DNA of 64,000 nt, taken from assembly GCF_013122565.1 (NCBI RefSeq), contig NZ_CP053258.1; one strand, given 5' to 3'. Position numbers and translations under genes: made by a program. The DNA is from Escherichia coli (GTDB lineage Bacteria > Pseudomonadota > Gammaproteobacteria > Enterobacterales > Enterobacteriaceae). Positions 36,128-59,124 of the stretch are shown piece by piece. Every line of letters begins with the position of its first letter. Positions within the stretch are counted from its first letter, which is position 1. The notes under the pieces were generated by a model. It was not told where the DNA came from and searched no databases. It saw only the letters and a program-made list of their open reading frames with translations.

Positions 36128-36702
36128 ACCGGGCCTCCGGTTGTATCGCCGCCTTTCAGGACGCCAGTATGCTGATGCGCATCAACCACGATCCCGTTAG
36201 AACTCATCGCTCCGCCGCCCTGGGTAACGCCACCATTGATCACAACTTCGCTGTTAATGCGCGTGCGGTCAGCCTCCAGTACAAACTCACTGGTTTTCAG
36301 GGTGATATTGTCAGCGGCCTCAATGACCATGGATTTGATGCCCCTGACATACCAGCGCCCGGTGGCGGGTTCGTATTCAAACCAGCCACCGTCTGGGTAC
36401 TCAACCACGTTGCCGTCCTCAGAGTCTGAAGGTGGTGGAAACTGATTTGAGTAGACAGCAGGCAGGGCAAACGCGGTTTCCAGATTGCCACCCAGGCTGA
36501 ACAGCACAACCTGCTCGCCCACAGACGGTTTCCACCAGGTGCGCGATTTGCCCGCGCGCAGTGTCAGCCAGTTAATCCAGTTGGTTTCGAGGTCGCCCGT
36601 TTTCACCCGACACAGCCAGTTTTCCCGGTCCACTTCGGTGACTACACCTGTGCGAATCAGATTGGTGATAAGGCGCATGATTTCGGTTAGTTGTGCATTC
36701 AT
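36124..36702 (-). CDS. V: baseplate spike protein V
   Basis: 192-aa ORF at P2 V position. Confidence 0.8.
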   Translation of the reverse strand: MNAQLTEIMRLITNLIRTGVVTEVDRENWLCRVKTGDLETNWINWLTLRAGKSRTWWKPSVGEQVVLFSLGGNLETAFALPAVYSNQFPPPSDSEDGNVVEYPDGGWFEYEPATGRWYVRGIKSMVIEAADNITLKTSEFVLEADRTRINSEVVINGGVTQGGGAMSSNGIVVDAHQHTGVLKGGDTTGGPV

Positions 36703-36750
36703 GTCGACGATATTTGCACAAACATATATTGTGGGACATTGAGTCAGAAA

Positions 36751-36768
36751 TGTATGACTTACTACACA
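36751..36768 (-). promoter_or_regulatory. Ogr-type late promoter dyad TGT-N12-ACA upstream of V operon
   Basis: tgtatgacttactacaca about 50 bp upstream of V start. Confidence 0.5.
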
Positions 36769-36795
36769 ATGTTTATCCGCGCAAAGGAGTTACAG

Positions 36796-37701
36796 ATGAC
36801 ACAAATCGGTATCTATGGATATTGCTTCACGAAAGAATTTACTTTTAAAGGAGGGACACTGATACCTCGTTACAAATCCTTTAAGGAACTAAAAGAGAAT
36901 AAATGCGATGGAAGCGAATATGTATTAAGTGGATTTTTCTCTCCCGCACATGCTTCTGAAAACACCGTCACTCAAATAATTTATGATCTTTCAGCTGTTT
37001 TAAGTTTCATTGAACAAAAAAATGTAATCATATCAAACTTCCTAGAGGAACATGAAACACCTGAAAAGTTAGATAATAATTTCCCACTAAAATTGAAGTC
37101 AAAAAGAAAGTCATCACTAGGAATAATTGTTGAAGATTACTTCTCTGAAAAGAGTCGCTCAGCGTTCATTGAGCTTGCGATGGATAAACTTCATAGAAAT
37201 ATTAATTCTCATCAAAACCCTTTTAGAACTGCGTTCTATAAGTCTATATTTTCTTTTAGGGAAAGAATGGACTATGTAGATGTTAAATACTTCCTTAATT
37301 TCTCAGCATTAGAATCCCTGTGCAGATATATCGATAACGAGTCGACATCTAGTTATACACCACAAATAATTACAAAGGTTTTAAAAGATTATGGTTTTAA
37401 TGTATCTAAAGAAGGCAACCCTGTACCACAAAGAAACGTGATTCACTATTGCACGCTTCGAAACTCTCTATTCCACAATGGAAATTATATTGGATACATT
37501 AAGAAAGATGATCCAAGCAGTATCATTAAATTAAGTGATTATTATTCAAATCTAAATTTACTTTTACCTTTAGTATTAATGAAATATATAGGATTCGATG
37601 ATGGATTAATTAACTGGGACTCATGGATAGACTATGAACCATTTCTCGCCCTCAGGCCTAAAAACTTAACTCCATCGAATGGTAAACAATCAATTAGATA
37701 G
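36796..37701 (+). CDS. hypothetical moron protein with Rx4H (HEPN-like) motif
   Basis: 301-aa ORF (MTQIGIYGYCF...), RBS aggag upstream, about 33% GC, opposite strand to flanking tail genes; ..CTLRNSLFHNG.. motif. Confidence 0.6.
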   Translation: MTQIGIYGYCFTKEFTFKGGTLIPRYKSFKELKENKCDGSEYVLSGFFSPAHASENTVTQIIYDLSAVLSFIEQKNVIISNFLEEHETPEKLDNNFPLKLKSKRKSSLGIIVEDYFSEKSRSAFIELAMDKLHRNINSHQNPFRTAFYKSIFSFRERMDYVDVKYFLNFSALESLCRYIDNESTSSYTPQIITKVLKDYGFNVSKEGNPVPQRNVIHYCTLRNSLFHNGNYIGYIKKDDPSSIIKLSDYYSNLNLLLPLVLMKYIGFDDGLINWDSWIDYEPFLALRPKNLTPSNGKQSIR

Positions 37702-43263: not shown

Positions 43264-45030
43264 ATGAACACCACACTGACACCCGCAGATCTCGATCCCC
43301 GTCGGCAGGCCATGCTGCTGTACTTTCAGGGATACCGCGTAGCCCGCATTGCTGAAATGCTGGGCGAGAAAGTTGCAACCGTTCACAGCTGGAAAAAACG
43401 CGACAAGTGGGGTGACTATGGGCCGCTGGATCAGATGCAGCTCACCACCGCCGCACGCTACTGCCAGCTCATCATGAAGGAGCACAAAGAAGGGAAAGAT
43501 TTCAAAGAGATTGACCTGCTGGCGCGCCAGTCTGAGCGCCACGCGCGGATCGGCAAGTTTAACAATGGCGGCAACGAATCCGACTTAAACCCTAACGTCG
43601 CCAACCGCAACAAAGGCCCACGCCGTCAGCCGGAAAAGAATGTTTTCACCGATGAGCAGATTGAGAAGCTGGAAGAAATCTTCCATTCCTCCATGTTCAA
43701 CTACCAGCGCCACTGGTGGGAAGCCGGAAAAACCAACCGCATCCGCAACCTGCTGAAGTCACGCCAGATCGGCGCGACCTTTTACTTTGCCCGTGAAGCC
43801 CTGATTGACGCCCTGCTGACCGGACGTAACCAGATTTTCCTTTCCGCCAGCAAGGCACAGGCCCACGTCTTTAAGCAGTACATCATCGACTTCGCCAAAG
43901 AAGTGGAGGTGGAGTTGAAAGGCGATCCGATGGTGCTTCCTAACGGGGCCACGCTTTACTTCCTCGGCACCAATGCCCGCACGGCCCAGAGTTATCACGG
44001 CAACCTGTATCTGGATGAATATTTCTGGATACCGAAATTCCAGGAGCTGCGCAAAGTGGCTTCCGGTATGGCTATTCACAAGAAATGGCGACAAACCTAT
44101 TTTTCCACGCCATCCAGCCTGACACACAGTGCTTATCCGTTCTGGTCCGGTGCGCTATTCAACCGTGGGCGCAACAAAGCCGATAAGGTGGACATCGACC
44201 TGTCCCACAGCAATCTGGCCCCCGGCCTGCTGTGCGCAGACGGGCAATACCGCCAGATTGTCACCGTGGAAGATGCAGTGCGCGGCGGATGTAACCTGTT
44301 CGACCTCGATCAGTTACGCATGGAGTACAGCCCGGACGAATACCAGAACCTGCTGATGTGCGAGTTTGTGGACGATCTCGCGTCTGTGTTCCCACTCAGC
44401 GAGCTGCAGGCGTGCATGGTGGACAGCTGGGAAGTCTGGACCGACTTTCATGCACTGGCACTGCGCCCATTTGGCTGGCGCGAAGTGTGGATCGGTTATG
44501 ACCCGGCGAAAGGTACGCAGAACGGCGACAGTGCCGGATGCGTGGTGGTGGCACCGCCAGCCGTGCCGGGCGGCAAGTTCCGCATTCTTGAGCGTTACCA
44601 GTGGCGCGGGATGGACTTTCGCGCCCAGGCTGACGCCATCAAAAAACTGACCGAACAGTACAACGTGACCTATATCGGCATCGACTCAACCGGCGTTGGT
44701 CACGGGGTTTATGAGAACGTGAAAGCGTTCTTTCCTGCCGTCCGGGAGTTTGTCTACAACCCCAACGTTAAAAACGCCCTGGTACTCAAGGCCTACGACA
44801 TTATCAGCCACCGCCGTCTGGAGTTTGACGCCGGGCACACCGACATTGCGCAGTCATTCATGGCAATCCGTCGCGCCACCACCGCCAGTGGCAACCGCCC
44901 GACCTATGAAGCCAGCCGCAGCGAAGAAGCCAGCCACGCCGATCTGGCCTGGGCAACGATGCACGCACTGTTTAACGAACCGCTGCAGGGCGAATCCGCC
45001 AATACCAGCAATATTGTGGAGATTTTTTGA
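43264..45030 (+). CDS. P: terminase large (ATPase) subunit P
   Basis: 588-aa ORF at P2 P position. Confidence 0.85.
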   Translation: MNTTLTPADLDPRRQAMLLYFQGYRVARIAEMLGEKVATVHSWKKRDKWGDYGPLDQMQLTTAARYCQLIMKEHKEGKDFKEIDLLARQSERHARIGKFNNGGNESDLNPNVANRNKGPRRQPEKNVFTDEQIEKLEEIFHSSMFNYQRHWWEAGKTNRIRNLLKSRQIGATFYFAREALIDALLTGRNQIFLSASKAQAHVFKQYIIDFAKEVEVELKGDPMVLPNGATLYFLGTNARTAQSYHGNLYLDEYFWIPKFQELRKVASGMAIHKKWRQTYFSTPSSLTHSAYPFWSGALFNRGRNKADKVDIDLSHSNLAPGLLCADGQYRQIVTVEDAVRGGCNLFDLDQLRMEYSPDEYQNLLMCEFVDDLASVFPLSELQACMVDSWEVWTDFHALALRPFGWREVWIGYDPAKGTQNGDSAGCVVVAPPAVPGGKFRILERYQWRGMDFRAQADAIKKLTEQYNVTYIGIDSTGVGHGVYENVKAFFPAVREFVYNPNVKNALVLKAYDIISHRRLEFDAGHTDIAQSFMAIRRATTASGNRPTYEASRSEEASHADLAWATMHALFNEPLQGESANTSNIVEIF

Positions 45031-46064
45031 TGGGAAAGAGTAAGAAGAACCGAGCTGCGGCGACGAAACAGATCCAGCTTAAAAGTCAAACTACAGCCGA
45101 AGCATTCAGCTTCGGCGATCCCGTTCCTGTTCTGGACCGCCGAGAATTACTGGACTATGTGGAATGCGTACAGATGGACCGTTGGTATGAGCCGCCCGTC
45201 AGCTTTGACGGACTGGCGCGCACCTTCCGCGCTGCAGTGCATCACAGTTCCCCGATTGCAGTAAAGTGCAACATTCTGACCAGTACCTACATCCCTCACC
45301 CGCTGCTCAGCCAGCAGGCTTTTTCACGTTTTGTGCAGGACTATCTGGTATTTGGTAACGCCTACCTGGAGAAACGCACGAACCGATTCGGTGAAGTTAT
45401 CGCCCTTGAGCCTGTGCTGGCAAAATACACCCGACGCGGGTTAGACCTGGATACCTACTGGTTTGTGCAATACGGCATGACTACACAGCCGTATCAGTTC
45501 ACGAAAGGCAGCATTTTTCACCTGATGGAACCGGATATCAACCAAGAGATCTACGGCCTGCCCGGTTATCTTTCTGCCATTCCGTCAGCCCTGCTCAACG
45601 AGTCCGCCACGCTGTTCCGCCGCAAGTATTACATTAACGGCAGCCACGCAGGCTTCATCATGTACATGACCGACGCCGCGCAGAACCAGGAGGATGTAAA
45701 CAACCTCCGTAACGCGATGAAAAGCGCCAAAGGACCAGGCAACTTCCGTAACCTGTTTATGTACTCGCCGAACGGCAAAAAGGACGGGCTTCAGATCATC
45801 CCATTGTCTGAAGTCGCGGCAAAGGATGAGTTTCTGAATATCAAAAATGTTAGTCGCGATGACATGATGGCGGCACACCGCGTGCCGCCGCAAATGATGG
45901 GGATTATGCCTAATAATGTTGGGGGGTTTGGGGATGTGGAGAAAGCGAGTATGGTATTTGTGAGGAATGAATTAATTCCTCTACAAAGGCGTTTAGAAGA
46001 GCTTAATTTGTGGCTAGAAGAGGAAGCCATAAAATTCAAACCATACAATTTATCAGATAATTAG
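45027..46064 (+). CDS. Q: portal protein Q
   Basis: 345-aa ORF overlapping P stop, P2 Q position. Confidence 0.85.
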   Translation: MMGKSKKNRAAATKQIQLKSQTTAEAFSFGDPVPVLDRRELLDYVECVQMDRWYEPPVSFDGLARTFRAAVHHSSPIAVKCNILTSTYIPHPLLSQQAFSRFVQDYLVFGNAYLEKRTNRFGEVIALEPVLAKYTRRGLDLDTYWFVQYGMTTQPYQFTKGSIFHLMEPDINQEIYGLPGYLSAIPSALLNESATLFRRKYYINGSHAGFIMYMTDAAQNQEDVNNLRNAMKSAKGPGNFRNLFMYSPNGKKDGLQIIPLSEVAAKDEFLNIKNVSRDDMMAAHRVPPQMMGIMPNNVGGFGDVEKASMVFVRNELIPLQRRLEELNLWLEEEAIKFKPYNLSDN

Positions 46065-46071
46065 AATCATG

Positions 46072-46108
46072 GCCCTAGTATATTATCATTTTCACTAGGG
46101 CTTTCTTT
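46072..46108. terminator. hairpin plus T-rich tract between convergent Q and retron RT
   Basis: gccctagt..actagggc stem followed by tttctttct. Confidence 0.5.
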
Positions 46109-47869
46109 CTATATGCTGCATATTTTTTTATAATGTTCAAAAACATCTTTAAAAGTGTTGAGTATTATTTCAAAACCACTAAAATCAACTTTTCGTTTTT
46201 TATCCCTAACTACTTTCACAGAGAAAACATGTTTCCCATATTCAGTTTTTGAGTCCCCATCGTTCTTTTTGTTAAATTTTTTACCACCAAGAATAGTTGA
46301 TAATACATCATGAGTAAAAAGATCTTCCATCGCAGTCTGCTCACCAGTAGCACTTAAAGGCGTTAGAATGATATAGAGATTTTTAAAGACATGGATAAAT
46401 CTCATTTTTCTCATTTTATTGGTATCATCGGGGCAGCTCTTAACATTATTTTTAAGGAAATTCAAAATCTCATTAGAACCAGAATCGTTGTCCAATACCA
46501 TGATAACCGGGTGCTTAGGAATGCTTCCATAGTAGCTTGAATATTCATCCATATATCTTTCGATGAATTTTTTAAGATCTGCGCTACCTCCAGACATATT
46601 AATAAAATAACTTGACTTCTCATCAGATTTAAAAATATTCAAGTTGATATCATTTCCTTTACCGTCTGTGCTTTTCTTGAGCAACTCAGGAAATTTGGCA
46701 GAAAGTGAACGAATAGCTGATTTTAAATATACTCGATCAGTTTTGCCTTCTGTCAAGATTGTCGGGGAAGCATGTCCATGAAAAAACTTGTAGTAAATAA
46801 ATTTACTATATGCCTTCTCTCGTACATTCAGCTTTAACCTGTAGTTTTTTAATGTAATATGAATAGGCGCATATTTTTCAGGCTGTTTACTTATTTTATC
46901 TTGTATGTTATTAAATTTATCAATCTGGTCAATAAACCCAAATCTTCCCTCTAGTTTTTCGATACTCCCCACGACTAGCTTACCATCTTCATCAGGTAGC
47001 TTATATTCTCCCTTACTATAAAGTGAATGAGCTAATGCTCTTGTTTTATTCGAATATTTCCTATCAACGTTAACAAATCTATTTATAGTAAGTCCCGTAA
47101 CTTCTTGTCTCGTGGATTTGTACGAGATCCTTGTTTTAGCATCATTAATATCAAAACCAGCACGTTTTATTTCACTGACAAGAATGCTCCCCAAGACAAC
47201 CCCCTCAGGAAGAGATATTGCCAAATCGGTAGGAAATTCTTTTTTATTAGTTGAAAACGTGATGTCATCGGCATAACGACTATATGAACAACCTAAACTC
47301 TTTGCTAATTTAGCTAATCTAATATCCATAATGCTACAAATTAAGTTTGTTATCACTGGAGAACACGGGCTACCCTGAGGCAAACTTCCCTTATAGCATG
47401 CGGCTTTAGCTAAAGTAGTGGCGACAATCGGATTTAATAAGAAATCCCTATTGGATAGGAAGTACCCTCTCACTCGCCCAAAATTAAAGCTTTTGAAAAA
47501 ATCCTTAAGATCAATATTGAGTATTATATTTTTCCCACGATGTCTGAAAGCATTGGAAATTATTGACTTATTTCTTTCAAAACCAAAGGAGTAATTGTTT
47601 TTAATTTTTTTAATTTTGAAAGTTTCATCTCTACACTCCATTAAAAGATCGGCTATTCGTCTTTGGAGATCTTTCAAACTATCTTCTGGCGCAGAAATCA
47701 ATCTGACTCCCTTACCTTTTTTTGGAATAGAGAAATCTTTATACTGATTATCAGTACCAATTCTGTAAAGAATATTCGTTAAAAACACCAACTTAACATC
47801 TAGCAATTTTGCCAAGTCAGCACGAGATGCTGCGACTTTCAAAAGTAGTAATTTAGAAGTTGCGACCAT
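46109..47869 (-). CDS. ret: retron-type reverse transcriptase with C-terminal Toprim-like domain (Ec67/Retron-Eco2-like)
   Basis: 586-aa ORF; RT motifs [12 protein letters not shown] and YADD; C-terminal ..ILTEGKTD.. and ..VLDNDSG.. resemble Toprim E and DxD motifs; about 33% GC. Confidence 0.8.
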
Positions 47870-47908
47870 AATTATATTTTATCGTAGAAGTTAGTAAGAG
47901 AGGAAGAA

Positions 47909-48037
47909 CGCATGTAGGCACTCCTTCGCACAGCACAACGGCCCTATAGCGACGAAACAAGGATGTCAGGGATGCGATTCCACCTGCCATTAAAATCACT
48001 GGTTGTGATACACAACCAACAAATCTGCCTACATGCG
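47909..48037 (-). ncRNA. msr-msd: putative retron msr-msd non-coding RNA
   Basis: 12-bp perfect inverted repeats cgcatgtaggca (47909..47920) and tgcctacatgcg (48026..48037) flank a 105-nt region 40 nt upstream of RT start; G follows a1; internal hairpin ggttgtg-ata-cacaacc. Confidence 0.5.
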
Positions 48038-48105
48038 CATAAATGAAACTACCATTTCAACGTCTTCATTTCCAGTAATATATTTCAAATATCTACACTG
48101 AGCGC

Positions 48106-48124
48106 GCGCTCGTATCCCCGCCAC
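48106..48124 (-). other. putative cos (cohesive-end) site
   Basis: Minus strand GGCGTGGCGGGGATACGAG; first 13 nt match the P2/186 cos 5' motif GGCG(A/T)GGCGGGGA as I remember it. Confidence 0.4.
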
Positions 48125-48158
48125 GCCTGCCCGCTTTATGTAGTGGTTTTCATGCAGG

Positions 48159-48228
48159 TGCATGATCTACGCAAAAGCCCGCCAGTTCTGGCGGGCCTTA
48201 GCAAAAACGATCCTCAAACGATCATGCA
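48159..48228. other. compound palindromic structure (9-bp outer IR enclosing a 9-bp GC hairpin)
   Basis: tgcatgatc...gcccgccag tt ctggcgggc...gatcatgca seen directly; function unknown. Confidence 0.4.
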
Positions 48229-48469
48229 ATCTCATGCAGCATAGACATGCACAGACGAGTAAAGCGAATCGGACCTTACGCAAGGTGAACTCCTCAGCGG
48301 GCATAATCAGTATGTCGGAAGATCTCTAAAAATAAATAATTCGGTTAACAGGTATGCTTACAAAAGCATATATTTGATTAAAAATCATGTAAGGGGGAGG
48401 ATCTCAAACTGAATCGCCACGGGTTTTACAAATTTCGATAGTCTCTCTAACGTTTCGGCTGAGGTCAAA

Positions 48470-48895
48470 ATGAAAAGCTTTTACGTATTAATTTTAATTC
48501 TGGTTGCAAGCTTTGTTAGCGTCCCAGTTCAGGCGGTAACAGCTAAAAACTATGAGAAAGGAACTAAAGCTCAACAGAAATCAATATCTTACCTTTCATG
48601 TGCATTCTATGGCAGTAGCACACAATTAGATCCTAGCTACACGGAGCAAGTACCTACAGCCGATATCAAGATATTACAGAAAGCAGCTTACCACGCTTAC
48701 AACGATGCGCTCTCATACTTTGGCTATGAGGAACCAGATCACGAACAACGCATAATTGATTATGCTGAATTTGTGGCGTCGCAAGAAGCTGTGTTATGGG
48801 ATAAGCCGGGAATGAATGGAAAGCAGGTAACACTAATTGCTCGTTCTCTCTACAATGAGAGTAACTGTAACTTGTTACTGGACTCAATTAAGTAG
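48470..48895 (+). CDS. hypothetical secreted protein (signal peptide)
   Basis: 141-aa ORF MKSFYVLILILVASFVSVPVQA...; AT-rich; opposite strand to neighbours. Confidence 0.6.
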   Translation: MKSFYVLILILVASFVSVPVQAVTAKNYEKGTKAQQKSISYLSCAFYGSSTQLDPSYTEQVPTADIKILQKAAYHAYNDALSYFGYEEPDHEQRIIDYAEFVASQEAVLWDKPGMNGKQVTLIARSLYNESNCNLLLDSIK

Positions 48896-49054
48896 GAAAA
48901 AGATGGTATTTTGCCCGTAGTTTCAACCTTAATCTCCGAACCTGTCGCAGAACGGGCGTTCACTCATCAAATAAACGCCACACCTAACGCCTCACTGTAC
49001 TCGTTGTTCAACCTTGCTGACGCCAGAACCAAGTTCAGACGCCAGCAACTTTTC

Positions 49055-49288
49055 TTAATGCAGCCAGCTGTCGTCTTCCCACACCTTCTGCATAATCTTC
49101 ATCACTTGTTTTCTTTCTTCGTCCAGTTGCAGTCCGGTCAGTTCCACACCGTTAGAGCTACCTTTGCGGATGCGAATTACCGTTTTGGGATACAGGGGGC
49201 GCAGATTGCGGTAAAGCTCGGATTCAAGGGCGTCCAGGGTAGACTGGCTAATCTTCTGCTCTTTATCGATCATTATTTCAATGCGCAT
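49055..49288 (-). CDS. DinI-like protein (Tum/antirepressor C-terminal-domain-like)
   Basis: 77-aa ORF MRIEIMIDKEQKISQSTLDALESEL...WEDDSWL resembling the DinI family; GAGGTGA RBS upstream. Confidence 0.7.
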   Translation of the reverse strand: MRIEIMIDKEQKISQSTLDALESELYRNLRPLYPKTVIRIRKGSSNGVELTGLQLDEERKQVMKIMQKVWEDDSWLH

Positions 49289-49298
49289 AAAGGTCACC

Positions 49299-49487
49299 TC
49301 AGCTGATGACATCCATTGAGCGGTTGTATTCGTGGGTTCTGATTTTTGCCATGAGTTCATCAGTCAATTCAGAAACCCACTGCAGAGCCAGCCCCTTCTC
49401 TTCATCACTACACTCACTAGCCGCTACAAGCTTAAGAAAAAAATCAATGCGCTGGAGCTTCAAAGACTCCAAAAAATAGTCCTGCAT
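49299..49487 (-). CDS. hypothetical small protein (first gene of LexA-box-associated operon)
   Basis: 62-aa ORF just upstream of the DinI-like gene. Confidence 0.5.
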   Translation of the reverse strand: MQDYFLESLKLQRIDFFLKLVAASECSDEEKGLALQWVSELTDELMAKIRTHEYNRSMDVIS

Positions 49488-49529
49488 CTTTCCTCCTATG
49501 ACACCAAAGCAATACTGTATATATAACCA

Positions 49530-49545
49530 CTGTTTATATTTACAG
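49530..49545. promoter_or_regulatory. LexA box (CTGT-N8-ACAG)
   Basis: ctgtttatatttacag 43 bp upstream of the 62-aa ORF start; adjacent half-site tactgtatatat. Confidence 0.7.
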
Positions 49546-49639
49546 TATATAATAATCTTACTGATGTAAAACGTTTTTTTACGTTCATCAGCCTGAAATG
49601 CCTGGTATTATTAAGAGCACGAATTGTTAACCCGCGTAA

Positions 49640-52054
49640 TTAATACAGGTTCCGCCACTTATCATCTTCCTGCAAACGCTGGTTCCGATAGAAGATACGC
49701 AGGCCTGCTCCTGACGGAATACTGCCGCCGCGAAGGAGTAAATCGACCTCTTTCTCGCTGCCATCAAATCCTCTGGACTTCAGTTCATAGACGAGCTGCT
49801 GTCGCTGATGGTCTGTAATTCGCTGTTTGTAGTCTTTACGCCGTTTCGGTTTCACCAGGCGTAACCTTGCAGCCAGTTCCCGGCGCTCTTTTTTGCTCAT
49901 ACTGTGCAGGTATTCGTGCAACTCCTTGTCATCCATGCGGGTAATGTCCGTTCTGGTATCCCCATCAGCTGATTTGTCTTTCCCTTGTTGGTTCAAATTT
50001 TCAGCAAGGGGACAGTTATTGCCACGAGTCCAAGGGGCGCAAGCGCCCTGGTCGGCTACCGCCTCCTGAACGTCAACGGCTTTACGAACCATTTTCCACT
50101 TCACTGCATGAGTGCAGATCTTGCCCTCTGCAATGGGTGACCAGATGCCATAAATACGAATGCCGTGATCGCCATAGGCGGTCGGCTCTTCGTTAATTTC
50201 ATAAGCAGTTCTGATGAGGTGATATTTGCGGGGAACCAGTACGCCGCCCTGCTTCATGATGTAAGTGGCAAAACAACCAGCATCAGCAGCAGCCAGGATT
50301 GCATCAAGGCGCGGGTTATCCAGTACCGGCGCACCTGCTTTTTTGTCCCCCTGTTGCCTTGCCGCCTGACCAGCCAACAATCGCAGTTCACGGTAAGCCT
50401 GACGCCCCGGAATGCCAAAGAAGCGGAATTGCTGAACACGATGCAAAGACGCCCAGGCATTCACGTATTCAGCGTTATCACGCAGAGATTTACCCGTTTC
50501 CTTGCTGATCTCGCCAGCCAGACCACGCCCGTCAATGTTCTTACTGATGTATTTCGCGATGTAGCTTGTTGGCGTACCTTTGCGCGGGTTTATCAGCTCA
50601 GACTTAAAGCGTGGTCCCGTGTTATTACCCAGCTCCTCGCGGTCTTCACGAATGGCAAACTTACGCAACAAAGCAGTAATGGCTCGGCGATCTTTTTTGC
50701 GCATAAAACACAACAGGTGCCAGTGCACTGTACCGTCATGATGCGGCTCAGCCACCCGCACGCCATACCAGCGCAATCCGGCTTTGTGCATCGCTTTACG
50801 AAATGCAGCAAACATGCCGACCAGATAATCACTGCTTTGTCTTACCGTCGCGTTTGTCCAGGTCGGGTTTGGTCTGCCGTTATTTAGCGTGGAATGGAAA
50901 CGTGACGGACAGGTGATGGTGTAGAAAACGGCGCAGTCACCGCGCATTTCCGCGATAAGCTCCAGACCTTTAACACAGGCCATCATCTCATTGCGGCGAT
51001 GCGCAGGGTTGCTGCTGCTGGCGTTTACCACGTCTTCCATATCCAGCGTGTCGCCGTCTTCGTTCACCAGTTCATGAGAACGAAAAAACTCCAGCGACTT
51101 ACGGCGCTGCTCACGTTTATGCATCACGGCTTCATAGCTGACATAGGGAGATGCTTTTTTGCTGACCAGGCAGACAGCGCGCAACTGCTCTTCCCGCCAT
51201 TCGCAACGCATCTTCCATAATTTCCGATACCACCAGTCGGCGCACAACATACGCGCCAGCGAACCCGGAATGAGTTCATAGGGCACGGGTTTACGGCGGT
51301 TTCTTTTCCGGCGGAGTTGCTCAAACGCAGGTGGGATGACATCCAGTCGCAGGGTTTCTGCTGCCACCCTTTCCCATGTCTTGCGGATTTCTTCTGGCTT
51401 AACGTCATCGGTGGCATACAAATCGCCACAAGCTGCATCAAGGCACATGCTCATATGCGCAGCTACCAGGGTGGACAGGCGTTTCACCTGATCCTGACTC
51501 ATTTCAGGCAGGATCAGCAGGCCGTCCAGCCCTTCCTGGCTCGCCATAAAGCGAAAAGCAGTGGATAGCTGACTGTCGCGTACATGCTCCAGCCGTTCCA
51601 GACATGGCTTAATCGTCTCACGCAAATAGCGGGAATAAGCCTTTGGCCTGCCCAGGCTGCTGAAGTATTCAATACGTTGCATCAGCGGCTTGCTGATATG
51701 GGAAGGCTGGGCGTTAACGTCCGCCAGAATGACCATGTCTGGATTAAAACGCTGCTGCTCATGCGCCAGCTTTGCCCGGCTAATGAGCTTATCCTGCTCT
51801 ATTTCGCGTTGGACAGGATCACGGGATTCATTAAAGAAATAACGCTCCCAGACCTGATCACTCAGAGCCTCGCGGCGCAGTTGTTCCTGCTCGTTATCGG
51901 CAGCGTACAGAGTGATCAGGTTTGAAAGCGCAGAAACCGGCGCAACTTCCGCCGGGTCCAGATAAGGGTTAATGGCCTTTTTCGGGCTGTTCCATGAGAA
52001 TGCTGCGGCGACCTCGTTAAAGCCGCTGCAGTTGTTCATATCATCATGGCTCAT
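49640..52054 (-). CDS. A: replication initiation protein A (rolling-circle nickase)
   Basis: 804-aa ORF at P2/186 gene A position. Confidence 0.85.
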
Positions 52055-52908
52055 GCACGCACTCCGTACATGGCAGAACTATCCACGCCACGCGAAGGAT
52101 CAAATCCCACCCAGCAGCGCGCCCCGGAAACAGCAATGATTTCTGTTGCAGATTTACTCTCGCCAGCCGACACGCCGATGCTGCGTTTTGCCTTGATGTA
52201 GTGGTGAGTGAAATTGCGATACAGCGAACGAATCAGGGATGTGTCACTGTTAGAAACAATGACCGGATGTCCTTCAGATGCTCGATGTTCAAGAACGGAT
52301 GCCAGGTGATACTGGTCATCTTCAGTGAAACCATCAGTGTGATAGCCGGAAAACGTACCGTCATACGGCGGATCGCAATACACCACATCCCCCGCCTTCA
52401 ACATCGCCAGCGTTTCATCAAAGCTGGCGCAGATAAACGTTGCCCGCTGGGCTTTTTCTGCAAATGCGCGAATTTCTTTTTCAGGGAAATACGGATTTTT
52501 ATAATTACCGTAGGGAATGTTGAAATGCCCGCTCTTGTTATAGCGACATAAACCACGGTAACCGTGACGATTGAGATACAGGAAATATACCGCTTTCATG
52601 AAATCAGTAATTTCAGTGGAGTAATTAAACTCCTGCCTTATGTTGTAATAAGCCACCTCCCTGTTTGCGATCTCAAATAAAACTCTGGCGCGAGATATAA
52701 ACGATTCACAATCAGCGGCAACCTTTTTATAGAGGTTGATTAAATCAAGATTAATATCCGCAACCAGATAGCTTGGATAATCCGTCTCCATCATCACAGC
52801 ACAGGAACCCGCGAAAGGTTCAACCAGTCGCGGGCCAGCAGGAAGGTGTTTTTTCAGTTCGGACATAATTGCGGTTTTATTTCCCGCCCATTTCAGGATG
52901 GTGCTCAT
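52051..52908 (-). CDS. DNA adenine methyltransferase (Dam-like, phage-encoded)
   Basis: [11 protein letters not shown]..., DPPY catalytic motif, [16 protein letters not shown]; resembles E. coli Dam. Confidence 0.85.
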
Positions 52909-53132
52909 ACAGCACCTCCGTTGTAATGTTTGCCTTTCAGCTCTGCGATTTCCTGACAGGTAATGCAAAGCTGCACTCCCGGAATGGCGCGGCGTCGTGC
53001 TGGCGGAATTGGCGCTTCACATTCAATGCAAAGTACGCGTGACACGCCCGGTGATTTGGCACGGGCTGCACGGATATGGCGCTGGCGTTCTTCTTCAACG
53101 CGCTGCTGTACGAGATCCATTGCATCAGCCAT
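52905..53132 (-). CDS. TraR/DksA-family C4 zinc-finger protein
   Basis: 75-aa ORF with CIECEAPI...CITCQ. Confidence 0.7.
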   Translation of the reverse strand: MADAMDLVQQRVEEERQRHIRAARAKSPGVSRVLCIECEAPIPPARRRAIPGVQLCITCQEIAELKGKHYNGGAV

Positions 53133-53371
53133 TAGTGGATCTCCTGCGCTTCGTTCTGGATTGCTTCAGCAGTGACACGCAGCAGTTCTGCCGCTTCGAC
53201 GTGGTTTAGCTGGCGGGATGTGATATGACACGCCAGGCTATCAAGGCGAGCTGCCATTGCTTCAGCCCTTGCCCGGCGCTCTTCCAGACGAGCCTCTGTC
53301 AGTAAAATATTAAGCCCTGCGTCATCCGGTCCGGTTTTAGTCGTGAGGGTTTCAATATTACGCATAATCAA
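53132..53371 (-). CDS. hypothetical phage early protein
   Basis: 79-aa ORF in early operon. Confidence 0.5.
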   Translation of the reverse strand: MIMRNIETLTTKTGPDDAGLNILLTEARLEERRARAEAMAARLDSLACHITSRQLNHVEAAELLRVTAEAIQNEAQEIH

Positions 53372-53432
53372 TTCTCCTGAATTTAGATAAAGGAATGCCC
53401 GGCGGGTTTACGCCATGAATTTCATTAGTTGG

Positions 53433-53774
53433 TTAATTCGGCATGGTTAGCCGTCTGGGAAATAAGCTCACCACTGCACGAAAATGATTCATTGCTTTAA
53501 TCAGCTCCCGCTTTTCGTCAGTGGTCAGCTCATTAATGCTGATGCTATGACGTTCAGCTGGAATTTTTGCCATAAAGAATATAGCAGCTAGTGCCCGTTT
53601 ATTTTGTTCATTATTGATATCCCGTGGATCACGCATATCTTTAATAAACCGCTCAAGCTCTGACTCAATATTCAGGCCAAAAACTTTCGCCCTTAATTCC
53701 GCTATGTGATTAAGTCCATTCAGGCGTTCACCGGGGCTTAATGGAACAGTCGCCGCAGCGCCATTAATTGCCAT
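53433..53774 (-). CDS. hypothetical phage early protein
   Basis: 113-aa ORF in early operon. Confidence 0.5.
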   Translation of the reverse strand: MAINGAAATVPLSPGERLNGLNHIAELRAKVFGLNIESELERFIKDMRDPRDINNEQNKRALAAIFFMAKIPAERHSISINELTTDEKRELIKAMNHFRAVVSLFPRRLTMPN

Positions 53775-53796
53775 AATTCATATCCCCAAAACGCAA

Positions 53797-54021
53797 CTAT
53801 CGTTCTTTGTTCTTACGGTAACGTTCAAGAGGAGATACATTTTTTCGTATCGTCTCTTTAACCTGCTCTCCCCGTAAAAACGTCCCATCCTTTAACGCGA
53901 AAAAGTAACTGCCATCGCCCGACAATGACGGATAGCAACAGAGCAAATCATCTTCAGGTACTGAATAACTCTCCCCTCTGTAACGAAACTGATAAACCAC
54001 TTCACTTTCTGCCGCATACAT
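53797..54021 (-). CDS. hypothetical phage early protein
   Basis: 74-aa ORF. Confidence 0.45.
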   Translation of the reverse strand: MYAAESEVVYQFRYRGESYSVPEDDLLCCYPSLSGDGSYFFALKDGTFLRGEQVKETIRKNVSPLERYRKNKER

Positions 54022-54188
54022 TTGGACTTTCTCCGTTTCCTCATGGTCAATTCAGACAGCAATTCATCTTGTGAATGACATGGATGCCAGCGTTTTCCAT
54101 CCTCACCCGTGATCCAGCCGTGACCGTAGTGCATTGCCGGGCTTTGTTTTACCAGCAGCGATGCAAATGATGGTTCTTTCGTCAGCAT
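53892..54188 (-). CDS. hypothetical protein (overlaps previous ORF in another frame; uncertain)
   Basis: 98-aa ORF with GAGGTG RBS. Confidence 0.3.
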   Translation of the reverse strand: MLTKEPSFASLLVKQSPAMHYGHGWITGEDGKRWHPCHSQDELLSELTMRKRRKSKCMRQKVKWFISFVTEGRVIQYLKMICSVAIRHCRAMAVTFSR

Positions 54189-54195
54189 AAGCACC

Positions 54196-54705
54196 TCACA
54201 GCAAACCGAATGAAGCACCGAGGCCAGTCACGGTATCAACTGCACTCGCCATCGCAGGGTTAGCCTGTAAACGGGCCTGCAATGAAACAGCAGCCAACGC
54301 CATCAGTCGTGTTACAGAGTTAATGCTGCTGATAGCATCACGACGACCTGCACTGGTTTTTACATCGCCAGATACCGCACCTGCAGCAACACGCCCGATC
54401 TCTGCGGTTGCACTCATGACGTAATGTGGCAGTTTCTCTTTTGCCACCTCATTAATCGGTACGCATGGCAGGCAGTGAATCTGAGCCAGAAAACCATCTA
54501 CCAGCGTTGAATCTTCAGTCAGATCGGTAAGCAGCCAGATTTCTGGTGCGGTTAATAAATGAGGTTGAGCCGGGTTCAGCTTGTTCCGCAGAATCTGCAC
54601 ATTCATGCCAGCACGTTCTGCCAGTTGCACCAGGTTGTGGCGCAGCGCGAATGCACGACAGGCTTCATCAAAATGTGGATGTTTGGAAACTTGGTAATCA
54701 AACAT
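54196..54705 (-). CDS. B: replication protein B-like
   Basis: [25 protein letters not shown]... at gene B position. Confidence 0.7.
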
Positions 54706-54737
54706 GGTCGACACCTCTGATGTATCCCAAAATGGAA

Positions 54738-54959
54738 CTAGTTGAATACAACATTGCAATCAGTAAGTGCATCAACGGTAAGAGCAGCAAGGTTGATCAT
54801 TACTTTTTCTCTTTTCTTGTCTTTACGAAGACGATGCCGAGGAATGCGACCATCCGCCAACATATCGTTGATTGTGTCGATTGAAAGACCAGTAAGTTCG
54901 CTATAACGCTCGATTGTGACGTGTGGCGTATTCAGAGTTATTGAAATGTTAGGGGTCAT
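54738..54959 (-). CDS. Apl/Cox-like excisionase and transcriptional regulator
   Basis: 73-aa ORF, first gene of lytic operon, divergent from cI. Confidence 0.6.
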
Positions 54960-55009
54960 GATGCAACATCTCCTATTGGCTTGTGGTGAGCCTGTAGTAA
55001 TCGCGACAA

Positions 55010-55025
55010 GTACCCAATTGGGTAC
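55010..55025. promoter_or_regulatory. perfect 16-bp palindrome GTACCCAATTGGGTAC in immunity switch region
   Basis: Between divergent apl/cox-like and cI starts; candidate operator. Confidence 0.5.
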
Positions 55026-55054
55026 AAAACTGATACTAGGATCGCAAAAGAGAT

Positions 55055-55651
55055 ATGTCAACATCAAAGTACCCAAGTGAGATCAAAATAAATCCCAATA
55101 AAGGTGGTAAGGCTGCGATTGAGCGATTAGTCGAAGCCTATGGCTTTACGACACGACAGGCTTTAGCTGATCACTTGGAAGTATCAAAAAGCACACTAGC
55201 GAACAGGTATTTGCGGGATACATTTCCTGCTGACTGGATAATCCAATGTGCTCTTGAAACAGGAACCTCCCTCAAATGGTTAACTACCGGACAAGGCCTT
55301 AAGCAAAGCTCGCTGACAGCAGCTACAGAAGAGCTTGTTAAGTTTCGCCTTGCCGCAGGCAAAATGATTGAAGACGGTTCATATGTCTTCGATTCATCAT
55401 TTCTTCCTGCAAACCTTTCATCACCAATTGTTATTCAGGATGGACTCGTCACATACATTTGTGATCAAAAATTTTCTGAAGTACTTGATGGAAACTGGTT
55501 AATCAATATCGACGGAACCTATTCCATTCGAAAAATCACAAGGCTTCCTAAAGGAATGATTAAAATTACAACAGCAGAGAATAGCTTTGAATGTGCATTT
55601 TCTGATATTGAAGTGGTTGCTTGTATAAGAAGTACAATAGTCTCGAATTAA
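55055..55651 (+). CDS. cI: CI-type immunity repressor (186-like)
   Basis: 198-aa ORF, HTH N-terminal region; divergent from lytic operon. Confidence 0.75.
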   Translation: MSTSKYPSEIKINPNKGGKAAIERLVEAYGFTTRQALADHLEVSKSTLANRYLRDTFPADWIIQCALETGTSLKWLTTGQGLKQSSLTAATEELVKFRLAAGKMIEDGSYVFDSSFLPANLSSPIVIQDGLVTYICDQKFSEVLDGNWLINIDGTYSIRKITRLPKGMIKITTAENSFECAFSDIEVVACIRSTIVSN

Positions 55652-55671
55652 TATAGTAAAAGGATTTTAAA

Positions 55672-57348
55672 ATGAATTCATTTGCCATCGTTATACTCTT
55701 ATTAGCATTTCTCGCCCCTGTTCTAGCTGTAATATTATTTAAACAAAGTAAAAAACACAAAGCGGCTATAGATAACCTGACAGCTAACAACATAGCCCTT
55801 TCTAACCAACTGATTGAAAATCAAGAAAAACTAGCACAGACCGTACGAGAATTATCAGATCTTGAAGGGCGAGCAGCACCATTGTGGCAATACGAAGAAT
55901 TGCACAGCGCAGTAATGGATGCAGAGAATAAGATAAAAAATGCGGACTCAATAGCCAAGCAAAAAATAGATGAAGCCCAAATTAAGGCGGCTAAAACAGT
56001 AAACGAAGCAAATTATCAAGCTCAGATAACAATAAGCAACGCTAATAGCGAAGCTATAGCAATCACCAAAGACGCTCGCGATGCACGCCTGAAAGCCAAA
56101 GAACGTCTTGATAATGCTAATAATAAAGCAAATGAGCTAATCTCAAATGCTAATGACAATGCAGTAAAAATTATTTCTGATGCAGAAGAAAGAGCAAAGG
56201 AGATTGCTGGTTCAGCATATGAAGCTAAAGAGTTTGCAGAAAAATATGAAGCAGTTGCAAAATCAATGAAAAATAAAATTGAAGGTTATGGTGATGAATG
56301 GATCATCCCTAACCGTAGTGTACTTGATGAGCTGGCAGAAAATTATGAATTTACAGATGCAGGCAAGGAATTACAAAAAGCCAGAGAGTTAACCAAATCA
56401 TTAATAAAAACTAATAAAGCTGCTTCGTGTGATTATGTTGAGCAAAACAGGCGTAATACTGCCATAAACTTTGTTTTGGATGCCTTCAATGGAAGAGTTG
56501 ACAGTATTTTATCAAAAGTCAAACACAACAATTTTGGAAAACTTTCCCAAGAAATAAAAGATGCATTTCAACTAGTAAATTACAATGGCTCTGCCTTTAG
56601 GTCCGCAAAAATAAGTGACATCTATCTTCAGGCAAGACTCAACGAGCTAAAATGGGGTGTAGCAGTTAATGAAATTATGCTCGAAGAAAAAGAAGAGCAA
56701 AGAAGGATTAAAGAACAGCTTCGTGAAGAGGAAAGAGCTCGTAGAGAATATGAAAAAGCGATAAAAGAAGCTGAAAAAGAAGAAAAAGCTATTCAGCAAG
56801 CTATAAATAAAGCAACGAAAGAACTTATGCTTGCAAATGAAGAACAACGCTTAGCTTTAGAGCAAAAAATAGCTGAACTACAGTTAAAATATGAAGAAGC
56901 TGAAGCTAAAAATCAACGAGCTATTTCTATGGCTCAACAAACCAGATCAGGCCACGTCTATATCATTAGTAATATTGGTTCATTTGGCGAAGATGTATAT
57001 AAAATTGGAATGACACGCCGCCTTGAACCACTTGATCGTGTTCGTGAACTCGGAGATGCTAGTGTTCCTTTTTCGTTCGATGTTCATGCGATGATTTATA
57101 GTGATGATGCACCATCATTAGAAAACCATCTGCATAAAGTTTTCAACGAAAAGCAGGTCAATAAAATTAACTCACGAAAAGAGTTTTTTAACGTAAATTT
57201 AAAAGAAATCAAATCAGTTATTGAAGACATGAACATCAACGCCCACTGGACAATGTTTGCAGAGGCGAAAGAATATAGAGAGTCTCTAGCTATTGAGCAG
57301 GAGCGCAAAGCAGCCACTTCCGCCAACGATGAACTACATGTTGCTTAG
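55672..57348 (+). CDS. membrane-anchored coiled-coil protein with C-terminal T5orf172/GIY-YIG-like domain
   Basis: 558-aa ORF; N-terminal TM; long coiled-coil repeats; C-terminal GHVYIISN...YKIGMTRR...RVRELG; about 37% GC; between cI and int. Confidence 0.65.
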   Translation: MNSFAIVILLLAFLAPVLAVILFKQSKKHKAAIDNLTANNIALSNQLIENQEKLAQTVRELSDLEGRAAPLWQYEELHSAVMDAENKIKNADSIAKQKIDEAQIKAAKTVNEANYQAQITISNANSEAIAITKDARDARLKAKERLDNANNKANELISNANDNAVKIISDAEERAKEIAGSAYEAKEFAEKYEAVAKSMKNKIEGYGDEWIIPNRSVLDELAENYEFTDAGKELQKARELTKSLIKTNKAASCDYVEQNRRNTAINFVLDAFNGRVDSILSKVKHNNFGKLSQEIKDAFQLVNYNGSAFRSAKISDIYLQARLNELKWGVAVNEIMLEEKEEQRRIKEQLREEERARREYEKAIKEAEKEEKAIQQAINKATKELMLANEEQRLALEQKIAELQLKYEEAEAKNQRAISMAQQTRSGHVYIISNIGSFGEDVYKIGMTRRLEPLDRVRELGDASVPFSFDVHAMIYSDDAPSLENHLHKVFNEKQVNKINSRKEFFNVNLKEIKSVIEDMNINAHWTMFAEAKEYRESLAIEQERKAATSANDELHVA

Positions 57349-57430
57349 CAATGTATGTTTCATAGTAATCACACATTGATTACTGGTTACATATACAGTT
57401 AAATTTAGCCCTCTGATATGAGGGCTTTTT

Positions 57431-58486
57431 ATGGCAGTACGAAAACTAACCACAGGGAAATGGCTTTGCGAATGTTACCCCGCCGGACGTAGCGGACGCC
57501 GTGTGCGTAAACAATTCGCCACCAAAGGCGAAGCACTGGCCTTCGAGCGATACACCATGGGGGAAATAGAAGCAAAGCCCTGGCTGGGCGAATCAGTGGA
57601 TCGTCGGACACTGAAAGATATGGTTGAGCTATGGTTCAAATTACATGGCAAATCTCTTACTGCCGGACAGCATGTCTACAACAAGCTGCTGTTGATGGTT
57701 GACGCCTTGGGAAATCCCCTTGCAACTGATCTCACCTCAAAAATGTTTGCTCACTATCGCGATAAACGCCTTACTGGTGAAATCTACTTCAGTGAAAAAT
57801 GGAAGAAAGGAGCAAGCCCAGTTACTGTTAACCTGGAGCAAAGCCATCTAAGCAGCGTTTTCAGAGAACTTTCCCGCCTGGGTGAATGGACACTTCCAAA
57901 CCCATTAGAGAAGATGCGCAAATTCACTATCGCAGAAAAGGAAATGGCATGGCTTACACATGAGCAGATTATCGAATTACTGTCTGACTGCAAACGTCAG
58001 AACCCAATTCTGGCACTGGTGGTAAAAATATGTCTAAGTACAGGCGCACGTTGGCGAGAAGCAATCAATCTTACCCGCTCACAGGTCACCAAGTACCGAA
58101 TCACCTTTGTGAGAACGAAGGGGAAGAAAAACAGAAGCATCCCTATCAGTAAAGAGCTTTATGAAGAGATCATGGCGCTCGATGGGTTCAATTTCTTCAC
58201 AGACTGCTATTTTCAATTTTTATCCGTGATGGAAAAAACGTCTATCGTTCTCCCTCGCGGTCAACTGACACACGTTCTGCGCCATACGTTTGCGGCGCAC
58301 TTCATGATGTCGGGTGGAAACATCTTGGCCTTACAAAAAATTCTCGGACACCACGATATAAAAATGACTATGCGTTATGCGCATCTGGCACCGGATCATT
58401 TGGAAACGGCGCTCCGTTTCAATCCACTGGCAACGTTACCAAATGGCGACAAAGTGGCGGCAGCGGTTGGCATTACCCCGCAATAA
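57431..58486 (+). CDS. int: tyrosine integrase (P2/186 family)
   Basis: 351-aa ORF with R..HxxR..Y catalytic pattern (TGARWREA...LRHTFAAHF...MRYAH). Confidence 0.85.
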   Translation: MAVRKLTTGKWLCECYPAGRSGRRVRKQFATKGEALAFERYTMGEIEAKPWLGESVDRRTLKDMVELWFKLHGKSLTAGQHVYNKLLLMVDALGNPLATDLTSKMFAHYRDKRLTGEIYFSEKWKKGASPVTVNLEQSHLSSVFRELSRLGEWTLPNPLEKMRKFTIAEKEMAWLTHEQIIELLSDCKRQNPILALVVKICLSTGARWREAINLTRSQVTKYRITFVRTKGKKNRSIPISKELYEEIMALDGFNFFTDCYFQFLSVMEKTSIVLPRGQLTHVLRHTFAAHFMMSGGNILALQKILGHHDIKMTMRYAHLAPDHLETALRFNPLATLPNGDKVAAAVGITPQ

Positions 58487-58557
58487 CCACCACTGACCAC
58501 CACATTAAGTTATTGTTTTTTATCTAACTTATTGTTTTTATTAACCCATTTAGATAA

Positions 58558-58584
58558 GTGGGTTTTTTGTTGCCTAAAATTTAT
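58558..58584. repeat. attR core direct repeat gtgggttttttgttgcctaaaatttat
   Basis: 26/27 identical to attL copy; 3 bp from rcdA stop. Confidence 0.75.
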
Positions 58585-58587
58585 CTA

Positions 58588-59124
58588 CTACCCTGCAACC
58601 CTCTCAACCATCCTCAAAATCTCCTCGCGCGATAGCGGCTTACGGTCGGTGACAAAATGCAGCGTCATCCCCTCAATAAACGCATCAAGCGCGCGGGCGG
58701 TTCCGGGTTCAAACCATTGTTCGAGCGTTTGCTGACTGCGCTGCATCCAGTTTTGCATTACCGTTTTTAATAGCGGTTTTCGGCTAGCCAGCGCGTAGAG
58801 CTGGTACATCAGCTCCATGTTATCCGGCGTTGCCACCTGTGAGCTGTAGATCATATCGGTGATAGCCTGGCATGCGCCTTGAGCATCACGAACATCGCTA
58901 AAAAATGCCTGATATTGCCGGGACATGATCTCAGTAAAACTGCTGAACGCCTCCAGCAACAACTCATCAATTCCTGAAAAATAGTAGGTCATCGATCCCA
59001 ACGGTACCCCGGCAAGGGTAGCAATTTTGCGGTGCGTAACAGCATGTATTCCGTAAAGTTTCACCGCCTCCAGCGTGGCCTGGATAATTTTTTCTCGCCG
59101 TTGCGGATCGTTAGCGCGACGCAT
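58588..59124 (-). CDS. rcdA: TetR-family regulator RcdA (YbjK)
   Basis: [25 protein letters not shown]... Confidence 0.88.

Follow-up and report, generated by a model that had tools for sequence, protein, structure and literature searches.

What does the gene between the repressor and integrase genes of this Escherichia coli prophage encode, and would it protect the lysogen against other phages? The window, by which we mean the whole 64,000-nucleotide stretch of contig NZ_CP053258.1 that was analysed, contains the following features at this locus:

55055..55651, plus strand, cI repressor of the 186 type, 198 aa (PHROG transcriptional repressor; RefSeq 'phage repressor protein CI')
55660-55664, plus strand, Shine-Dalgarno AAGGA of the SNIPE gene, 7 nt before the ATG, read off the sequence
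55672..57348, plus strand, SNIPE / PD-λ-1 family gene, 558 aa, ATG start and TAG stop (PADLOC, Pfam and RefSeq name)
57407..57430, plus strand, terminator-like match, a 7-bp GC-rich hairpin AGCCCTC/GAGGGCT plus a 5-T run (the last T of the stem and TTTT) up to the int ATG
57431..58486, plus strand, tyrosine integrase, the last prophage gene before rcdA (PHROG integrase, 3e-75; RefSeq annotation)

A sequence-only reading had described an AT-rich gene of 558 codons between cI and int on their strand, and this holds. Its GC content is 0.369 and its GC3 0.268, against 0.475 and 0.491 for int and a GC content of 0.498 for the window. The gap from the cI stop to the SNIPE start is 20 nt, the interval from the SNIPE stop to int is 82 nt, and all three genes are on the plus strand. 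The ORF did not arise by chance: orthologues of 558 aa are found at 82-85% identity in several enterobacterial genera (Citrobacter, Salmonella, Klebsiella, Enterobacter, and others).

The opposite strand nearby encodes a Cox/Apl-like gene, cII, fil, a Dam methylase, and a P2-type replication endonuclease gpA (49640..52054), and the E. coli genes rcdA, ybjJ, and ybjI lie 3′ of int. Pfam places Phage_CI_repr and Phage_CI_C domains on the cI of orthologous loci; the integrase has NCBIfam tyrosine-recombinase matches, every one below its curated cut-off. Given the 186-type cI, the integrase, the P2-type genes on the opposite strand, and the rcdA-side flank, the element is a 186/P2-like (Peduoviridae) prophage with its lysogeny genes at the right end.

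The protein matches the PADLOC PD-Lambda-1 profile PDLC03976 at E = 3e-120 (protein residues 116-550 against profile positions 37-481 of 491) and PDLC03977 at E = 1.4e-116, and the PD-Lambda-1 profiles together span residues ~106-551. PF13250 (DUF4041) is named 'SNIPE' in the Pfam release behind the contig annotations and is listed on the 558-aa orthologues. RefSeq names copies that are 99.8-99.9% identical 'SNIPE associated domain-containing protein' or 'DUF4041 domain-containing protein'. All parts of the family architecture are present (transmembrane helix, helical stalk, DUF4041/SNIPE, helical hairpin, and a GIY-YIG domain with an intact catalytic set). The system is a single-gene one, its neighbors cI and int being core phage functions in E. 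coli, Klebsiella, and Salmonella. Judged by these profile and name matches, the window gene is a member of the named SNIPE (PD-λ-1) anti-phage family; it is already known and is not a new defence system. The sequence-only reading had found no named system to which to match it, and that statement has to be withdrawn. Its broader proposal, that the gene is prophage-borne anti-phage cargo in the lysogeny-side transcription unit, is supported in general as a prediction.

The family was discovered as PD-λ-1 by functional selection in ECOR26 (RCP76574.1) (Vassallo et al. 2022, PMC9519451) and renamed SNIPE (Saxton et al. 2025, bioRxiv 10.1101/2025.11.03.685801). The parts of the window protein are encoded as follows:

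55681..55740, plus strand, single N-terminal transmembrane helix, residues 4-23, then basic KQSKKHK (the sole segment with a 19-residue Kyte-Doolittle mean above 1.6; maximum 3.16)
55741..56283, plus strand, helical stalk rich in Ala, Lys, Glu, and Asn, residues 24-204 (AlphaFold2 helices 3-179 and 181-204)
56284..56661, plus strand, globular region with DUF4041/SNIPE (PF13250, 3.1e-12; Pfam hit at residues 267-322 = 56470-56637)
56662..56946, plus strand, helical hairpin rich in Glu, Lys, and Arg that links DUF4041 to the nuclease, residues 331-425 (AlphaFold2 helices 316-387 and 390-425)
56947..57246, plus strand, GIY-YIG (T5orf172/MUG113) nuclease domain, residues 426-525 (catalytic Glu E484, codon 57121-57123)

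The AlphaFold2 model was built from 45 diverse homologues and has a mean pLDDT of 80, with values of 84-95 across residues 231-330. It is elongated: a long helix (3-179) and a shorter one (181-204) are followed by a globular part at ~225-330, the hairpin, an α/β domain at 427-520, and a C-terminal helix. One N-terminal membrane helix had been claimed from the sequence, and a single hydrophobic segment is indeed present at residues ~4-23; together with its basic flank it fits a predicted single-pass anchor with N-out/C-in topology. Long helices or coiled coils had been proposed as well, and the model contains them at 3-179, 181-204, and 316-425. The stalk has a significant hydrophobic periodicity, with a period of 3.60-3.63 (power 123 versus 36±13 in shuffled sequences), and is self-similar at an 11-residue offset. 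The central DUF4041/SNIPE domain had been missed in the sequence-only reading.

The C-terminal GIY-YIG-like nuclease noticed earlier is recovered by Pfam as T5orf172 (residues 427-520, 8e-17) and MUG113 (443-520, 2e-19). The model of this domain has the GIY-YIG fold, with a β-β-α-β-α core and conserved Tyr (GIY), Tyr/Gly (YIG), Arg, Glu, and Asn. The 45 homologues, which are 32-54% identical, show no change at Y430, G446, T448, E484, and N497 and hardly any at R449, R450, and R456. A profile search of PDB sequences with the nuclease domain gave nothing significant (best E 0.59).

How would such a protein act? We think it probable that this cargo gene of a 186/P2-like prophage encodes a SNIPE-family defence protein, held at the membrane and cutting the DNA of entering phages, with the lysogen surviving. 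The mechanism is modeled on the reference SNIPE, which is 50% identical to the window protein over the functional core. The reference protein is constitutively located at the inner membrane, with an experimentally determined N-out/C-in topology (10.1101/2025.11.03.685801). Its N-terminal region associates with ManYZ, and its DUF4041, which also binds DNA, binds the tape measure protein of siphoviruses (10.1101/2025.11.03.685801). It requires DUF4041 and the nuclease (E414A abolishes defence) and cuts phage DNA during injection, as seen with radiolabelled phage DNA (10.1101/2025.11.03.685801). By extension, the transmembrane helix of the window protein would tether the nuclease to the inner membrane and so keep it off the chromosome. 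On injection by a susceptible phage, the DUF4041 region would engage the tape measure protein and DNA, the GIY-YIG domain would cut the DNA as it enters, and the lysogen would survive, which would make this direct defence and not abortive infection.

The sequence-only reading had named an abortive-infection effector. On such a reading, a toxic nuclease would be freed or activated on infection, degrade host and phage DNA, and kill the lysogen. The nuclease is not intrinsically phage-specific, since SNIPE without its transmembrane helix is highly toxic and cleaves the chromosome (10.1101/2025.11.03.685801), and the divergent N-terminus leaves room for other regulation. The characterised reference, however, provides direct, non-abortive defence against λ: infected cells survive a high MOI, unlike those with the Abi control PD-λ-3 (10.1101/2025.11.03.685801). 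The window protein conserves both the membrane anchor and the functional core, and its sequence offers nothing that speaks for abortive infection. We therefore hold this alternative to be very unlikely.

The same reading had also suggested superinfection exclusion. One part of this agrees with the reference, which acts at the step of DNA entry; the other does not, as the published mechanism is cleavage of entering DNA and not a block of injection. In its strict form, exclusion without cleavage would have the protein block the injection channel, as HK97 gp15 or K139 Glo do, with the GIY-YIG domain merely binding DNA. In its favor, the gene lies in a temperate phage's lysogeny unit and encodes a single-pass membrane protein, and DNA binding is a frequent annotation of T5orf172 domains. 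Yet the GIY-YIG catalytic positions are all invariant across the family, and in the reference E414A kills defence and radiolabelled phage DNA is cleaved. We regard exclusion of this kind as highly improbable.

The preferred reading, SNIPE-type cleavage of entering DNA, also has to accommodate the phage that carries the gene. In the BASEL set the reference acts on siphoviruses and not on myoviruses or podoviruses, and it leaves λ prophage induction unaffected (10.1101/2025.11.03.685801). Because the reference ignores the tested myoviruses and does not disturb λ induction, the resident myovirus prophage may well be spared.

Is the gene likely to be expressed in the lysogen? Co-transcription with cI is plausible, because the two genes share a strand, are separated by only the 20-nt gap with no predicted terminator in it, and keep this spacing across genera, and because the SNIPE gene has its own Shine-Dalgarno. 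Transcription with cI from the lysogenic promoter would make the protein constitutive in lysogens. A consensus promoter scan found no plus-strand promoter for cI, only a divergent minus-strand site at 55061..55033, so it is from gene arrangement that we infer cI-SNIPE co-transcription. This minus-strand site is near consensus (TTGACA-17-TAGTAT) and overlaps the start of cI, which recalls the face-to-face pR/pL arrangement of phage 186. The interval from the cox/apl-like gene to cI also contains a perfect 16-bp palindrome, GTACCCAATTGGGTAC, at 55010-55025, a candidate operator.

The 82-nt spacer between SNIPE and int (57349-57430) folds at -30.3 kcal/mol (z = -4.75). A first hairpin lies at ~57352-57395 and a second at 57407-57426; the 3′ arm of the hairpin next to int contains the sole Shine-Dalgarno-like GAGGG for int. 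We considered that the hairpin arrived with the SNIPE cargo and rejected this, as it is kept, with pair-preserving changes, in relatives that carry other cargo. It therefore belongs to the int upstream region and its regulation, not to the cargo. It could be an attenuator or terminator, or a translational control, that limits Int production from the lysogenic transcript. A search of 45500-58800, which includes this spacer, found no known RNA family in Rfam at the gathering threshold.

The position of the gene is variable among related prophages. Integrases 88-98% identical to that of the window are common at the rcdA-side attachment site; the identity takes in the upstream spacer, and the similarity begins at ~57350-57373, just past the SNIPE stop. 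In the seven loci inspected, the cI-int interval holds SNIPE, a 483-aa KAP P-loop NTPase, or a 63-aa ORF. The KAP NTPase (E. coli strain 1409, L004:3050-4501) matches the PADLOC candidate PDC-S20 at E = 4e-82. The 63-aa ORF, annotated as 'YdcA family' or hypothetical (L003:4199-4390, with equivalents in L005-L008), is the most frequent occupant of the inspected loci and has no match in PADLOC. With conserved flanks and unrelated alternative contents, the stretch between cI and int acts as a slot for cargo in 186-like prophages of E. coli.

This is a known kind of locus, as a defence hotspot between cI and int had been described earlier for the K139-like P2-related phages of Vibrionaceae, in passages of Rousset et al. 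2022 (PMC9122126). According to those passages, the K139-like hotspot is the same repressor-integrase slot with known and candidate defence genes, in phages of another lineage and hosts of another clade. The hotspots that they stress for P2 in E. coli are not cI-int (PMC9122126). Vassallo et al. 2022 (PMC9519451) place the E. coli P2 hotspots in the replication endonuclease-portal interval and at Z/fun.

A second variable slot extends from int to the rcdA-side end of the prophage and is empty in the window (58487-58587). Its cargo elsewhere includes a DUF2971 protein (L005:5799-6551), a DUF4917 protein (L006:5688-6671), a Panacea-domain protein with a hypothetical protein (L007:5746-6974), and a 110-aa hypothetical protein (L008:5686-6018).

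When the cargo differs, so does the cI allele. Complete E. coli genomes with the whole 198-aa allele number 164 and those with the SNIPE gene 163-165 of 5426 (about 3%), and the two appear to be inherited together; the cI-SNIPE-int order recurs in about 164 of the 5426. In a few genomes just the 5′ half (~300 bp) of this cI is shared, and the drop in GC starts inside its second half, from ~55250. The near-equal genome counts, the sharing of 5′ sequence only, and the AT-rich 3′ part of cI suggest that a recombination breakpoint lies within cI and that the mobile module consists of the cI C-terminal domain and SNIPE.

Beyond E. coli, the order and spacing of cI (198 aa), SNIPE, and int are identical in the Klebsiella and Salmonella prophage loci inspected. 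The gene is also present in the phage records vB_EcoM-813R9 (ON470620.1, L015:2932-4608; 99.4%) and Klebsiella phage KP12 (OM835953.1; 97.8%). The wider homologous family comprises 3370 clusters at 50% identity with E ≤ 1e-3 and 1405 with E ≤ 1e-30.

The gene might have no role in defence. Possible roles would be that of a selfish or housekeeping nuclease, for instance of the homing-endonuclease type, or that of a membrane-tethered factor for processing or segregation of prophage DNA. Homing endonucleases include GIY-YIG domains, the vB_EcoM-813R9 and KP12 GenBank records call the product a 'chromosome segregation ATPase', and there are weak, sub-threshold NCBIfam coiled-coil matches to DivIVA and SMC. 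We detected no ATPase domain in the window protein with NCBIfam or Pfam, and the SMC and DivIVA matches are far under their cut-offs and confined to the coiled coil. The phage can do without the gene, because its place in relatives is taken by the 63-aa ORF or the KAP NTPase, and the PD-Lambda-1 match is very strong. Against this evidence a non-defence function seems exceedingly improbable. As candidates in their own right, the NCBIfam matches to DivIVA/Wag31, SMC, and V-ATPase E were rejected as compositional. We flag the 'chromosome segregation ATPase' label in the two phage records as a mis-annotation caused by the coiled coil.

Compared with the Klebsiella and Salmonella orthologues, pN is ~0.10 and pS ~0.77-0.80; only pN and pS are given because synonymous sites are saturated and dS is not estimable. 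pN peaks at 0.13-0.17 in the transmembrane helix and stalk and is at its lowest, 0.054-0.067, across DUF4041 and the nuclease, with 0.054-0.064 in the DUF4041 region. By this codon comparison, the SNIPE gene is under strong purifying selection.

Elsewhere in the prophage, a retron reverse transcriptase of type I-C (RT-Toprim, 586 aa) is encoded on the minus strand at 46109-47869 (PADLOC E = 1e-212). Its neighbors are the portal gene (45027..46064) on one side and gpA on the other, which places it in the classical defence hotspot of P2. No retron msr/msd beside it was matched by Rfam at the gathering threshold in 45500-58800. With this reverse transcriptase and SNIPE, the prophage carries at least two defence systems. 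A plus-strand ORF at 36691-37701 stands amid minus-strand tail and baseplate genes, roughly at the P2 Z/fun hotspot, and has no match in PADLOC; at the same position a related prophage encodes a 'DUF6216 family protein' (L009:19174-19980).

The discovery value of the locus is small, as PADLOC, Pfam, and RefSeq already cover the family and its mechanism, down to the annotation of the window gene itself. Its modest practical value is that a natural variant of SNIPE, differing in its N-terminal "adapter", resides in a prophage that is common in E. coli and also occurs in Klebsiella and Salmonella. The variant is a ready-made test of the published idea that the N-terminus and DUF4041 set phage specificity. 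The analysis also documents, in E. coli 186-like prophages, a cI-int cargo slot resembling that of the Vibrio K139-like phages.

How does the window protein compare with known systems? Zorya, Kiwa, and HK97 gp15 are inner-membrane systems that act at or near the injection step (discussed in 10.1101/2025.11.03.685801). Unlike SNIPE they are multi-gene or non-nuclease systems; no sequence relationship was detected, and the window protein has no PADLOC match to any of the three. The PADLOC candidate PDC-S57, a stand-alone T5orf172/GIY-YIG protein, shares the nuclease with the window protein (E = 4.5e-20, residues 424-546), and phage genes annotated 'GIY-YIG nuclease family protein' in E. coli prophages, for example phiP27, are ~55-60% identical over the nuclease core. 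Matches of both kinds cover the nuclease region of the window protein only.

The closest characterised relative is the reference SNIPE. We located a reference-type gene by distant blastn in E. coli genomes and tblastn against phages. The 500-aa protein was taken from a lambdoid prophage of E. coli MP1, and its numbering reproduces the published E414, E223, and W257; a copy 99% identical to it is found in phage PhiR26_1 as 'PD-lambda-1'. In MP1, a 515-aa HD-domain protein is encoded 3′ of the SNIPE gene in the ren-nin region (L002:8846-10393) and is absent from the PhiR26_1 locus. The best 120 matches of a large protein search with the window protein were all 558-aa orthologues, and the reference SNIPE was not among them.

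From DUF4041 to the C-terminus (residues 265-555), the window protein is 50% identical and 65% similar to the reference. Its DUF4041 aligns with reference residues 196-254 and its hairpin (331-425) with 261-355, and the catalytic Glu is common to both (E484 in the window, E414 in the reference). Residues 1-264, which include the transmembrane helix and stalk, give no significant BLASTP alignment with the reference. One transmembrane helix is found in 59% of SNIPE homologues, and the N-terminus of the family is divergent, of variable length, and read as an "adapter" (10.1101/2025.11.03.685801). The unalignable first ~264 residues fit such an adapter. An association with ManYZ cannot be assumed for an N-terminus that has no similarity to the reference, and so the membrane partner, ManYZ in the reference, and the phage range of the window variant may differ.

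The 558-aa subfamily may even be a functionally distinct SNIPE variant, with an entry factor or tail component other than ManYZ and the λ-type tape measure protein, another phage range, and a cI-linked module. We entertain this tentatively, and our doubts outweigh it. It is suggested by the unalignable N-terminus, the long Ala-rich stalk without heptads, and the altered specificity positions in DUF4041: S292 and K327 of the window protein stand at the sites of E223 and W257 in the reference. In the reference, E223K and W257R retargeted SNIPE to Bas14-18 (10.1101/2025.11.03.685801), and K327 is at the W257R site. If the variant is distinct, its phage range would be different and might include non-siphoviruses that compete with the 186/P2-like carrier, and the tight linkage to one cI allele would amount to an immunity-plus-defence module expressed from the lysogenic promoter.

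Taken by their architecture, the two proteins follow one plan with some differences. The window protein is 558 aa long and the reference 500 aa, and the stalk has a period of ~3.6 in the former, whereas that of the latter is 3.52, a plain heptad coiled coil. The reference has an equivalent N-terminal transmembrane helix (Kyte-Doolittle 3.37 versus 3.16). Domain order is the same in both (transmembrane helix, helical stalk, DUF4041, helical hairpin, GIY-YIG), and both are single-gene, prophage-borne systems. Their carriers differ: the window gene lies between cI and int of a 186/P2-like myovirus prophage, and the reference gene between ren and Rha/nin-side genes of a lambdoid prophage.
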